64,000 nucleotides of DNA, taken from the NCBI GenBank assembly GCA_038065715.1, contig JBBTQL010000004.1, forward strand, positions 35,693 to 99,692. The letters are read 5' to 3'. This document shows, piece after piece, positions 59,468 to 64,000 of this stretch. Both the position numbers and the translations under genes were made by a program. A model generated the notes under the pieces. The model made no database searches. It was not told the origin of the DNA and worked only from the letters and a program-made list of their open reading frames with translations. The DNA is from Patescibacteria group bacterium. GTDB lineage: Bacteria; Patescibacteriota; Minisyncoccia; Minisyncoccales; Staskawiczbacteraceae. Each line of letters begins with the position of its first letter. The stretch's first letter is position 1.

Positions 59468-62014
59468 ATGAATATGGCAAAATATAATCCTCAAAAAATT
59501 GAGAAGAAATGGCAAGAGGCTTGGTATAAATCAAGCATTTTTAAAGCTAAAAACGGGTCTAAAAATAAGAAATTTTACCTTTTAGTGGAGTTTCCTTATC
59601 CTTCGGGAGACGGGCTTCATGTCGGCCATTGCCGAAGCTATACTGCCTTAGATATTATTGCCAGAAAAAAAAGAATGCAGGGATTTAATGTTTTATTCCC
59701 AATGGGCTGGGACGCTTTTGGATTGCCAACTGAAAATTATGCCATAAAAAAGGGAGTACACCCGTCTGTTGTGACAAAAAAGAATACAGATAACTTTAGG
59801 CGGCAGATGAAAAGTTTGGGGCTTTCTTTTGACTGGAGCCGAGAAATAAATACCACAGACCCAAAATATTATAAATGGACGCAGTGGATTTTTTTGCAGT
59901 TATTTAAAAATAACTTGGCTTATAAAGATAAAATTGCAATCAACTGGTGCCCTAAAGATAAAATTGGATTGGCAAATGAAGAAGTGATAAATGGCAAATG
60001 CGAAAGATGCGGCGCAAAAGTTGAAAAAAGAGATAAAGAGCAATGGATGATAAAAATTACAAAATATGCCGACAGATTAATTGAAGATTTAAATTTAGTT
60101 GATTATTTAGAAAAAATAAAAATACAGCAGAAAGATTGGATAGGCGAGTCACATGGAGCGTTGATAAAATTTTCGTTAGAAGGAAGCGAAGAATTCATAG
60201 AAGTTTTTACAACCAGAATAGACACAATATTTTCTGGCACGTTTTTAATTTTATCTCCAGGACACAATTTTATAGATAAATATAAAAATAAAATTGAAAA
60301 CATTGATGAAGTTTTAAAATATAGAGAAACCGCAAAAAATACTTCTGATATAGATAGAACTAATCAAGATAAAGATATTACAGGAGTGGAATTAAAAGGA
60401 ATTACAGTAAAAAATCCTGCCACAAATGAAGAAATGCCAGTTTGGACAGCTGATTTTGTTTTAGAGCAATACGGAACAGGAGTCGTTTTTGCTGATGCCC
60501 ATGATAAAAGAGATTTTAAAATGGCAAAAAAATATGGGATACCTTTGCGAACTTCAATAAAACCAGAAAATGAACTATCGGCGCAAAAAGCAAAAAATTT
60601 GGAAGAATGTTTTGAGGGCGAAGGCGCTCTTTATAATTCTATGCATTTTGACGGCTTAACTTCTTCTGAAGCCCGACCTAAAATAATTTCTTGGTTAAGG
60701 GAAAAAGGATATGCGGAAAACAAAATAAGCTATAAGCTTCGAGATTGGGTTTTTTCGCGCCAGCATTATTGGGGCGAGCCAATACCAATGATTTTTTGCG
60801 TAAAATGCGGTTGGCAGGCTGTTTTAGAAAAAAATCTGCCCGTTGAATTGCCTAAGGTAAAAAAATATCAGCCAACAGATACAGGCGAATCTCCTCTTTC
60901 TGCTATTGAAAAATGGGTAAATGTAAAATGTCCAAAATGCAAAGGACCGGCAAAAAGAGAAACAGACACAATGCCTAATTGGGCAGGTTCAAACTGGTAT
61001 TACTTGGCATATACTATGCCAAAAATTTCAAATTTCAAATTTCAAATTTCAAATTCTGCGAAAGAATTTTCGCAGTGGATGCCAGTTGACTGGTATAATG
61101 GCGGAATGGAGCACACAACTTTGCATTTATTGTATTCAAGATTTATTTTTAAATTTTTATGGGATATTGGAGCTGTTCCAAAAATAATTGGGGCAGAACC
61201 ATATAAAAAAAGAACTTCGCATGGAATGATTTTAGGCGAAGGGGGAATTAAAATGTCAAAGTCAAAGGGAAATGTAATAAATCCAGATTCAGTTGTGAAA
61301 CAATATGGAGCCGACACCTTAAGAGTTTACGAAATGTTTATCGGGCCTTTTGAGCAAATGATTCCTTGGGATATAAAGGGGGTTGTTGGTTCGCGCAGGT
61401 TTTTAGAAAAAATTTACAACTTAGTTTTGAAGAAGGCAATTCCGGCAAAAATCCCGACGGTCTCGCCGTCGAGGACCCGCGACGAAGTCGGGGCAGAAGA
61501 AAATTTTAAAAAACTTTTGCATAAAACAATAAAAAAGGTTGGTGACGATATTGAGGCAATGAAATTTAACACAGCAGTGAGCTCTTTAATGGAATTTGTA
61601 AATGCATGGAGCATTGCTGAAAATAGTTTAGATAAACCAGCCTCCGATAAAGGCTACGGCTTGGCGAAGAAAGATTTGCAAGAATTTTTAAAGATTTTGT
61701 CGCCTTTTGCCCCGCATTTGTCAGAAGAGCTTTGGCAAAGAGCTGGATTTAAAGGTTTGTGCTGCGCTCAAAAATGGCCTAAGTATGACGAAAAATTAAT
61801 TGAAGAAAAAAACATATTGCTTATTGTGCAAATTAACGGTAAAGTTAGAGATAAAATAGAAGTTAACGCAGGCATTACTCAAAAACAAGCTGAAGAAATA
61901 GTTTTAAAATTAGAAAAAATTAAAAACCGTATAACTAATATTAAAGAAGTGGAAAAAGTTGTTTTTGTGCCAGGTAAGTTAATAAATTTTGTGACTATTG
62001 ACAAGGATAAGTAA
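59468..62014 (+). CDS. leuS: Leucine--tRNA ligase
   Basis: 848 aa with FPYPSGDGLHVGH and KMSKSKGN. Inserts at 61023-61056 and 61452-61493. Confidence 0.95.
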   Translation: MNMAKYNPQKIEKKWQEAWYKSSIFKAKNGSKNKKFYLLVEFPYPSGDGLHVGHCRSYTALDIIARKKRMQGFNVLFPMGWDAFGLPTENYAIKKGVHPSVVTKKNTDNFRRQMKSLGLSFDWSREINTTDPKYYKWTQWIFLQLFKNNLAYKDKIAINWCPKDKIGLANEEVINGKCERCGAKVEKRDKEQWMIKITKYADRLIEDLNLVDYLEKIKIQQKDWIGESHGALIKFSLEGSEEFIEVFTTRIDTIFSGTFLILSPGHNFIDKYKNKIENIDEVLKYRETAKNTSDIDRTNQDKDITGVELKGITVKNPATNEEMPVWTADFVLEQYGTGVVFADAHDKRDFKMAKKYGIPLRTSIKPENELSAQKAKNLEECFEGEGALYNSMHFDGLTSSEARPKIISWLREKGYAENKISYKLRDWVFSRQHYWGEPIPMIFCVKCGWQAVLEKNLPVELPKVKKYQPTDTGESPLSAIEKWVNVKCPKCKGPAKRETDTMPNWAGSNWYYLAYTMPKISNFKFQISNSAKEFSQWMPVDWYNGGMEHTTLHLLYSRFIFKFLWDIGAVPKIIGAEPYKKRTSHGMILGEGGIKMSKSKGNVINPDSVVKQYGADTLRVYEMFIGPFEQMIPWDIKGVVGSRRFLEKIYNLVLKKAIPAKIPTVSPSRTRDEVGAEENFKKLLHKTIKKVGDDIEAMKFNTAVSSLMEFVNAWSIAENSLDKPASDKGYGLAKKDLQEFLKILSPFAPHLSEELWQRAGFKGLCCAQKWPKYDEKLIEEKNILLIVQINGKVRDKIEVNAGITQKQAEEIVLKLEKIKNRITNIKEVEKVVFVPGKLINFVTIDKDK
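61023..61056 (+). repeat. AAATTTC heptamer tandem repeat inserted in frame in leuS
   Basis: (AAATTTC)x4 plus a partial unit. Encodes KISNFKFQISNS. Confidence 0.85.
61452..61493. repeat. GC-rich palindromic insert family A, copy A4 (in frame in leuS)
   Basis: TCCCGACGGTCTCGCCGTCGAGGACCCGCGACGAAGTCGGGG is about 80% identical by eye to the reverse complement of A1. Encodes PTVSPSRTRDEVGAE. Confidence 0.75.
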
Positions 62015-62025
62015 ATATGCTATGA
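61997..62025 (+). promoter_or_regulatory. Promoter of DGR-2 target gene (inside the leuS 3' end)
   Basis: TTGACA, 17 nt (AGGATAAGTAAATATGC), then TATGAT, followed by TAATAATACAGCTCTTTTT as in DGR-1. Confidence 0.65.
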
Positions 62026-62067
62026 TTAATAATACAGCTCTTTTTAAGTGAAAATACTTGCAAAAAC

Positions 62068-62150
62068 AGCGGTTATAGCCAAAAGCGACCGAAGGTCGTC
62101 CTGAGCAGAGCCGAAGGACAACAAATCGGTATTTTCTGGCTATGACTGCT
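62068..62150 (+). promoter_or_regulatory. Conserved 5' leader hairpin of DGR target mRNA (copy 2)
   Basis: 13-bp stem AGCGGTTATAGCC / GGCTATGACTGCT. The loop is enlarged by a GC-rich insertion, GACCGAAGGTCGTCCTGAGCAGAGCCGAAGGAC. Confidence 0.6.
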
Positions 62151-62201
62151 ATGGTAGTAGTCAAGCGAAATGGTGAAACCCTAAAGAAAGGAAAAAGCAC
62201 C

Positions 62202-63274: not shown

Positions 63275-63642
63275 TACTGTTTTCTTTCTTCCGCTTTTAT
63301 CGCGGAAGTTTTGCTTATTATTCCTTTTTTCCAGCCACCGATTATCTTACCAATGCCTTCTATCTCAGCGCCAAGCGAGATATATTGTTTATTAGAAACG
63401 AGTTTTGTTTCCCATAAAAGCTGAAAGAAAAAACGCAACGAATCAATTTTGTCCGATGTCGCTTCAAGCAAAACAAGTTTTTTATTTATTGGCGTATACG
63501 TAGCTTTTCTTAATAACTCAAGAAGATCTAAAAATAAAATATCTACTTTAGTCCCGATTCCGAACCGCGCGATTCGTTCAATATTGCGATGCACTTCCAT
63601 CCACTGTTTATATATCAATTTGGATTTTTGCAAAACTGGCAA
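63274..63642 (-). CDS. avd: DGR accessory variability determinant (Avd-like)
   Basis: 122 aa with a TTG start. Paralog of 25340-25699 (PVLQK..., ..LLWETK..SNKQYISL...EGIGKIIGGW). The stop codon touches the last TR-2 base. Confidence 0.8.
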   Translation of the reverse strand: MPVLQKSKLIYKQWMEVHRNIERIARFGIGTKVDILFLDLLELLRKATYTPINKKLVLLEATSDKIDSLRFFFQLLWETKLVSNKQYISLGAEIEGIGKIIGGWKKGIISKTSAIKAEERKQ

Positions 63643-63648
63643 CAGTCT

Positions 63649-63655
63649 GGGGGGG
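63649..63655. repeat. Homopolymeric G7 tract in the avd/RT divergent gap
   Basis: Same context (AACAGTCTG(n)ATTA) as the G10 tract of DGR-1. Confidence 0.9.
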
Positions 63656-63685
63656 ATTAGAAGAATAACTATTTATATTTTGATT

Positions 63686-64000
63686 ATGAAAATTGTTTTG
63701 AAACATAAATATGAATATTTAATTAGCGTTAATAATTTATTGGAAGCGTGGACAGAATTTATCAAGGGGAAGCGCAACAAAAGCGATGTTCAGATTTTTT
63801 CATTTCATTTAATGGATAATATTTTACAACTTCATTGTGATTTAAAAAATGGCACATATAAGCATGGAGGCTATCAACAATTTAAAATCAACGACCCAAA
63901 ACCAAGGATAATTCACAAAGCCAGCGTAAAAGACAGATTATTGCACCACGCAGTATATCGTATATTATACCCGTTTTTTGATAAAAAGTTCATTGCAGAC
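63686..64000 (+). CDS. DGR reverse transcriptase, N-terminal 105 codons (truncated by window end)
   Basis: MKIVLKHKYEYLISVNNLLEAWTEF... is a paralog of RT-1. The last 87 nt are almost identical to 25968-26054. Confidence 0.85.
   Translation, partial: MKIVLKHKYEYLISVNNLLEAWTEFIKGKRNKSDVQIFSFHLMDNILQLHCDLKNGTYKHGGYQQFKINDPKPRIIHKASVKDRLLHHAVYRILYPFFDKKFIAD

Follow-up and report, generated by a model that had tools for sequence, protein, structure and literature searches.

A 64,000-nt stretch of genomic DNA from a Patescibacteria group bacterium (GenBank assembly GCA_038065715.1, contig JBBTQL010000004.1, positions 35,693 to 99,692 of the forward strand; here called the window and numbered from its first letter) ends in a locus that raises two questions: whether it is a genuine second diversity-generating retroelement (DGR), in addition to one located further upstream in the same window (DGR-1), and whether the protein that it would diversify is built on a new kind of scaffold. 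A preliminary description of this DNA had proposed the former and suggested the latter as a possibility. We found that the locus (DGR-2) combines an adenine-only pattern of mismatches between a variable repeat (VR) and a template repeat (TR) with intact genes for a reverse transcriptase (RT) and for the accessory variability determinant (Avd), a covariation-supported RNA, and recurrence in other genomes. We estimate at roughly 85% the probability that it is a complete chromosomal DGR of Patescibacteria, with the known target-TR-(avd)-RT layout and a mechanism that can be proposed by analogy with the Bordetella phage element. Its genes and repeats, with a 342-nt spacer between the target gene and TR-2, are the following:

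62202-62822, forward strand: target (variable protein) gene; the ATG at 62202, which GenBank (P0205) also takes as the start, gives 206 aa
62704-62813, forward strand: variable repeat VR-2, encoding target residues 168-204, the last three predicted beta-strands
63165-63274, forward strand: template repeat TR-2, with 29 adenines and 10 AAY codons
63274-63642, reverse strand: avd-2 gene, 122 aa, antisense to TR and RT, its stop codon abutting the TR end
63686-64000, forward strand: 5' part of the RT-2 gene, cut by the window end after 104 open codons (complete gene, 326 aa)

The two repeats are 110 nt long each and align without gaps, with 21 mismatches. The TR base is an adenine at all 21 of them, so that 21 of the 29 TR adenines are changed in VR-2; if mismatches fell randomly over the TR bases, the chance of this outcome would be (29/110)^21 = 6.9e-13. 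The 3'-terminal 13 nt are identical and fairly GC-rich (GATTCTCTCCCGC); beyond them the sequences diverge, with differences also at bases other than A, and the similarity ends sharply at both sides. Realignment thus reproduced the coordinates, length, mismatch pattern and identical 3' end given in the preliminary description, the adenine bias being upheld on formal alignment (p ~7e-13); the translations that it quoted for both repeats and its target length of about 206 aa also proved correct. In the target reading frame, all 21 changes lie at codon position 1 or 2 and none at position 3, and no TR-2 codon is able to mutate to a stop. Up to 20 codons are recodable, 15 of which differ at present, and about 10^17 protein variants can be encoded from TR-2. 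When the adenine positions of TR-2 were replaced by N, the resulting pattern matched only the VR-2 and TR-2 sites in the window (0 expected from shuffles). Further VRs for TR-1, the template of DGR-1, or for TR-2, envisaged in the preliminary description as remote targets anywhere in the genome, were searched for in the window and the next 10 kb beyond it, and none was found there.

A longer contig from this organism (L082, 139 kb), which is identical to the window across the 13.5 kb compared and runs past the window end, contains the complete RT-2 gene. On this contig (14219-15199), RT-2 is an intact gene of 326 aa with catalytic and DGR-type motifs (YADD and LGNLTSQ), which excludes a pseudogene. 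The protein matches Pfam RVT_1 (E 2e-24), and the closest protein of solved structure is 8ub7_A (E 6.9e-43), the Bordetella bRT judging by its sequence; group II intron RTs come next (4e-17). The antisense avd frame (63274-63642) and the RT start (63686) are located where they had originally been placed, and the position and strand of avd are kept in more than 30 related cassettes. The cassette is flanked by the genes of leucyl-tRNA synthetase (LeuRS) and pyruvate:ferredoxin oxidoreductase, housekeeping neighbours that indicate a chromosomal location without phage context.

The same design is found well beyond this organism. A scan of species-representative genomes detected at least 121 loci of the target-2 family, most of them in named Patescibacteria or candidate phyla radiation (CPR) lineages, and the surroundings of 80 of these loci were examined. 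In 30 of these, the target gene is immediately followed by an antisense avd and an RT, and contig ends truncate several others; overall, the same cassette comes after the target in about half of the 80, and the whole design recurs in more than 30 other species. In the 35 cassettes where a VR partner was found, the mismatches lie almost purely at adenines, and the TR is located 272-397 nt past the VR in 33 of the 35. Roughly half of the family lacks a TR, avd or RT within a distance of 6 kb. Where the set included a cassette from the genome of such a remote copy (four genomes; locus pairs L013/L030, L060/L051, L015/L027 and L049/L043), the TR of that cassette matches the copy, with 9/9, 11/13, 13/17 and 20/24 mismatches at A; this adenine-biased match implies that some family members are remote targets. 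Several genomes contain two or three members of the family, and one locus (L010) has a TR-like copy and no avd or RT match. In the protein database, the family comprises 84 clusters, all of them unnamed or annotated as 'hypothetical', and those bearing a taxon name belong to Patescibacteria. Its consensus is DGNLWAVxAxWxSxxRxWxVxAxSVExPxxWxAGxQVLSRDS, and the columns that vary within the family coincide exactly with those templated by the AAY codons of the TR.

Between target and TR, the spacer is non-coding and conserved across cassettes. When 34 of them, including both of the window, were aligned (A6), a leader of ~230 nt and further elements past the TR became apparent:

62869-62915, forward strand: terminator-like hairpin of the target gene, with arms GGCTCTCT / AGAGAGCC, a 21-nt loop and a T-run, read directly from the sequence
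62930-62935, forward strand: candidate promoter of the TR RNA, a -10-like TAGAAT with adjacent TG, aligning with TGnTATAAT-like sequences (A6 columns ~59-68)
62954-63153, forward strand: structured RNA leader 5' of the TR, from the alignment of 34 cassettes and covariation
62954-62977 and 62996-63036, forward strand: leader hairpins P1 and P2 of the A6 structure
63052-63059, forward strand: 5' strand of helix P0, A-rich, pairing with 63280-63287
63066-63077/63142-63153, forward strand: P3, a 12-bp helix enclosing P3a (63081-63094) and P3b (63108-63129)
63280-63287, forward strand: 3' strand of P0, pyrimidine tract UUUUCUUU, 6-13 nt past the TR end and ahead of the conserved hairpin
63288-63312, forward strand: post-TR hairpin CTTCCGC / GCGGAAG with U-run, starting 14 nt past the TR end, inside the C-terminal codons of the antisense avd

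RNAalifold predicted 52 pairs on A6, 42 of them with compensatory changes. In the structure named above, 91.1% of the cells are paired, versus 42-53% when the partners are slid, and the covariation score is 0.605, versus at most 0.19; none of 500 shuffles reached any of the observed measures. Helix P0, which joins the leader to the tract past the TR, is 82% paired and shows compensatory changes at 5 of its 8 pairs (e.g., GC 14 / UA 6 / UG 4). Among the 31 cassettes scored, 30 have a post-TR hairpin that starts 11-15 nt past the TR end; it varies in stem sequence and is followed by UUUU, and 87.8% of its cells are paired versus 37-60% when slid (0/500 shuffles reaching the observed value). A scanner called it terminator-like in both cassettes of the window, and it is the exception in the antisense-avd stretch between TR and RT, where RNAalifold detected no other conserved structure. 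A TGnTATAAT-like element occurs just past the target terminator in most cassettes; a simple promoter scanner did not call the hexamer at 62930-62935. Rfam families gave no match on 61900-64000.

The Bordetella DGR RNA has an Avd-binding stem-loop after the TR and requires a duplex, the 'cPRT Stop', that is formed by sequences on either side of the TR; a prediction over 40 nt upstream and 100 nt downstream recovered similar elements, including a stem-loop just past the TR, in 207 of 278 DGRs (bioRxiv 10.1101/2023.10.23.563531). DGR-2 has both a stem-loop 3' of the TR and an upstream/downstream duplex, each supported by covariation, in an arrangement unlike that of Bordetella. The post-TR hairpin may correspond to the Avd-binding stem-loop, and P0 fits, by its position, an analog of the 'cPRT Stop' duplex. 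By analogy, a TR RNA of roughly 375 nt would be transcribed from the promoter just past the target terminator and would consist of the structured leader, the 110-nt TR, the 8-nt tract that forms P0 with the leader, and a hairpin with U-run, at which the transcript would end. The RT-Avd complex would bind this RNA and copy the TR into cDNA, misincorporating opposite adenines, and the cDNA would then replace VR-2 at the 3' end of the target gene and recode the last three beta-strands of a small, predicted lectin-like protein with a putative role in ligand binding.

Other sequence features touch on this leader. A 71-aa open reading frame (ORF; 62947-63162) lies wholly inside it, and its counterpart on L082 (13489-13695) is publicly annotated as a 68-aa gene; it is not conserved as a protein and is probably a false gene call. 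The 3' arm of P3b (UUCAAAGGG) was considered as a guide of the complex to the 8-nt repeats that follow the target gene (CCCUUUGAA); it was rejected, being complementary at 6.5 of 9 positions versus a mean of 5.5 and showing no clear covariation, and we retain it as a weak lead, the best-scoring leader segment against those repeats. The leader also exists in at least two sequence subtypes, e.g., GAAGATACTTGG vs AAAAGAATCGG before P3, one in DGR-1 and the cassettes L011 and L080 and the other in the rest; the subtype goes with the type of Avd and not with the target family.

Several observations weigh against a complete and active DGR. Avd-2 covers the whole NCBIfam DivGenRetAVD profile (E 1.4e-15) with a score under the curated cut-off, and its match to Pfam bAvd, likewise over the full length (E 2.9e-9, 37.8 bits), falls just under the 40-bit cut-off. 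A screen of all A6 column pairs detected no primer:template duplex and no extra helices. No GC-rich cruciform like that of Bordetella adjoins VR-2, which is followed instead by an 8-nt repeat array and then by the terminator hairpin. An inverted repeat was found in only 34% of DGRs (Wu et al., PMC5758913). Of an IMH / IMH* pair, what was observed is the identical 13-nt end of the two repeats and their divergence past it. Finally, VR-2 showed no variation among the window, two other contigs and all the cluster members recovered, which are consensus assemblies from one aquifer site, and the exact VR-2 pattern with N at adenine positions had 0 matches in JGI metagenomes. The lack of variants in the three assemblies and in the metagenome scan is what would be expected if the cassette were a relic that diversified its VR in the past and is now inactive, with VR-2 frozen. 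We consider this very unlikely, since the cassette has kept its RT, Avd, TR, leader helices and terminal hairpin intact, and assemblies from a single site show only the consensus. Assembly breaks often fall at repeated or heterogeneous sequence. Another contig of the same organism (L001) ends at window position ~62932, about 110 nt past the target stop and between VR and TR, a break upstream of the TR of the kind expected at such sequence. A complete DGR that may still operate is our preferred reading.

The relationship between the two cassettes of the window has also to be considered, as DGR-2 might not be an independent element. The following features are needed for the comparison:

24031-26726: DGR-1, with the layout of DGR-2 (target, TR, antisense avd, RT)
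24741-24874: VR-1, with 24 differences to TR-1, 21 of them at A
25208-25341: TR-1, unrelated to TR-2
25340-25711: avd-1, antisense
25734-26726: RT-1, about 80% identical to RT-2 over the 104 residues in the window
61998-62026, forward strand: putative sigma-70-like promoter of the target-2 gene, TTGACA-17-TATGAT with a preceding TG, 11/12 consensus positions, a consensus match only

DGR-1 is itself real, as judged from its 21 of 24 differences at A, and the shared gene order agrees with the preliminary description of a second DGR built like the first one. A 53-nt promoter block before both targets is 81% identical, the DGR-1 copy (24031-24083) having the same TTGACA-17-TATGAT with upstream TG. 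Together with the similarity of the N-terminal 104 residues of the two RTs and with leader RNAs that are homologous and share one consensus structure, this would be compatible with a single RT serving both TR RNAs, DGR-2 then being a functional extension of DGR-1. However, a complete set of RT, Avd and TR is present in each cassette; the two Avds share only 35-38% identity; and the DGR-1 leader is of the distinct subtype found in L011 and L080, two cassettes with Avds that likewise resemble Avd-1 more closely, which suggests matched Avd-RNA pairs. We thus regard the shared-RT alternative as improbable. Read from the sequences, the link between leader subtype and Avd type hints at matched pairs by which two cassettes of one cell could be kept insulated from each other. 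Two separate cassettes in 64 kb had been described as a heavy investment in hypervariation, and in kilobases they are; as a surprise this does not hold, given that DGRs are significantly enriched in CPR/Patescibacteria (PMC8144416) and that about 10% of DGR-bearing complete genomes contain several of them (PMC5758913).

The answer to the second question depends on predicted structures. As previously noted, the two targets are not detectably similar in sequence (BLASTP E 5.2; hhalign probability 2.5%, collinear and insignificant); the target-1 family, with more than 1647 clusters versus 84, is about 20 times larger. Pfam and NCBIfam gave no match on target 2 or on any of 71 members of its family (nothing at E <= 0.1, including to FGE-sulfatase, DUF1566 and Lectin_C of Pfam), and a search of the family profile against PDB sequences returned only noise, so that target 2 belongs to no named sequence family of C-type lectin (CLec) type. 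By contrast, AlphaFold2 models built with the family alignments reached a predicted local distance difference test score (pLDDT) of 91 for target 2 and 88.7 for target 1, and both models show, after an N-terminal helical module, an identical order of elements: two strands, helix, strand, helix, two strands, two or three helices, and four strands (compared by element order). In target 2, the N-terminal module is a three-helix one (residues ~5-43) and is followed by the CLec-like domain (residues ~56-206), in which VR-2 corresponds to the last three strands (168-176, 181-186 and 200-204). Foldseek comparison of the target model with the PDB returned nothing below E 1; the relatives listed, all with low scores, are proteins of the FGE-sulfatase fold (SUMF2, EgtB, SenA, OvoA, PvdO, PorK), many animal C-type lectin domains, the C-terminal domain of Bdellovibrio Bd2740, and the DGR variable proteins TvpA (2y3c) and Mtd (1yu0). 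The model of target 2 has the CLec/FGE fold, which agrees with the lectin-like fold expected for unannotated VR domains of CPR (Roux et al., PMC8144416).

The preliminary description, which saw no similarity between the targets, had suggested that VR-2 could lie on a scaffold other than a C-type lectin. The two high-confidence models, with their same order of secondary structure, do not support this idea; structure prediction, which it had proposed as a check, yielded a lectin-like target 2 and lends no support to the argument of novelty. We hence give little credence to a new, non-C-type-lectin fold for DGR variation, and our reading of the models is that targets 1 and 2 represent one divergent CLec-like fold. 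The N-terminal helical modules (~45 aa) are shuffled between the target-1 family, the target-2 family and a third body type: P0017 and L072 (5920-6069) have a target-1 N-terminus on a target-2 body, and P0079, P0082 and P0084 a target-2 N-terminus on another body. At the sequence level, this exchange points to modular recombination of DGR targets. The two sequence-unrelated CPR target families would probably share, according to the models, one divergent lectin-like fold with interchangeable N-terminal modules.

The target genes have two further particularities, the first of which is a degenerate repeat array:

62823-62885, forward strand: degenerate 8-nt repeat array (GANNCTTT)n, directly after the target-2 stop codon
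24879-24930: degenerate 8-nt repeat array (GANNCTTT)n, directly after the target-1 stop codon

Within the 64-kb window, 8-nt arrays occur only after these two genes. The 3' untranslated regions (UTRs) of 77 target-2 family members, with or without a local TR, open with 4-8 degenerate 8-nt repeats; CTTTG is 19-fold enriched in them, the motif recurs most often at a spacing of 8 nt, and the autocorrelation has maxima at 8, 16 and 24. In nearly all loci of the family, a hairpin with a T-run comes after the array, and the 5' arm of this terminator is often the last repeat. Remote targets and the target of DGR-1 are also followed by the array, and so are two out of three further genes of the target-1 family. 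Its presence on the VR side and its absence from the TR side make it a recipient-specific feature, and by analogy it is a candidate for the functional counterpart of the Bordetella cruciform or for a recipient-site signal.

The second particularity is base composition. The GC content at third codon positions (GC3) of both target genes (62202-62822 and 24219-24878) is 0.68-0.75, also outside the VR, versus 0.25-0.34 for RT, avd and neighbour genes, in a window of 34.5% GC overall. In the 80 loci, the GC content of the target gene remains close to 56% irrespective of that of its flanks (34-63%), while RT and avd track the host. Adenine avoidance or mutagenesis was rejected as the cause of the high GC content, since A and T are equally depleted in the target genes outside the VR. 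We found no mention of the leader RNA, the 8-nt array or the GC3 anomaly in the literature covered. A tentative reading that joins these elements, which we hold possible and rather less than probable, is that the TR-(avd)-RT systems of Patescibacteria use a rearranged RNA with a 5' scaffold for RT and Avd that might also take part in priming, that the 8-nt arrays mark the recipient in place of a GC-rich cruciform, and that the GC-rich synonymous sites of the target genes belong to this same biology of targeting or exchange.

Outside the two cassettes lies a tmRNA gene (RF00023) at 38053-38403 on the reverse strand (112 bits), the only match above the Rfam gathering score in the whole window. 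A GC-rich repeat of 42-75 nt is present in three copies (8226-8300, 21287-21328 and 41147-41221) in this AT-rich genome and carries short palindromes, e.g., GATGGC-GAA-GCCATC. The 5' UTR of target 2 contains a GAA-loop hairpin (CGACC-GAA-GGTCG, 62086-62098) that resembles them.

As a DGR, the element adds little to what is known, as CPR genomes are already rich in this layout with small unannotated targets. Its interest lies in the comparative set, which exposes the leader RNA, the leader-to-post-TR duplex, the post-TR hairpin and the 8-nt array as directly testable elements; these conserved non-coding elements bear on how DGRs recognize their RNA and their DNA target in unculturable organisms. 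If the rearranged-RNA reading were true, it would describe a mechanistic variant of mutagenic retrohoming and not merely another DGR.

Among known systems, the closest ones are the DGRs of Patescibacteria (CPR) in the survey of Wu et al. 2018 (PMC5758913) and, putatively, those of clade 2 of Roux et al. 2021 (PMC8144416). They share with DGR-2 the host group, the order with antisense avd, a small target without recognisable domain, signal peptide or membrane segment, the C-terminal VR and the AAY-rich templating, and nothing essential differs; the order of TR, reverse-strand avd and RT with an upstream target is that of architecture B3, TR-(avd)-RT (PMC5758913). DGR-1 resembles DGR-2 in promoter, layout, homologous leader RNA, post-TR hairpin, 3' array, high-GC target and predicted fold, and differs in its unrelated target and TR sequences, its distant Avd and its larger target family. 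The variable proteins TvpA (2y3c) and Mtd (1yu0) belong to the same predicted fold class as target 2 and have, like it, the VR on the C-terminal strands. With the DGR of the Bordetella phage BPP-1 (mtd-avd-TR-brt), DGR-2 has in common a homologous RT (E 6.9e-43), Avd, adenine-specific mutagenesis, a stem-loop right after the TR and pairing between the sequences on its two sides. The differences concern the arrangement: in DGR-2, avd is antisense and downstream of the TR; the conserved RNA structure lies nearly all 5' of the TR, whereas that of Bordetella is in the 3' spacer; the upstream strand of P0 is located about 110 nt before the TR; the downstream strand of the duplex precedes the hairpin, whereas in Bordetella it comes after; and the VR is followed by an 8-nt array and a terminator hairpin in place of the adjacent GC-rich cruciform of Bordetella.

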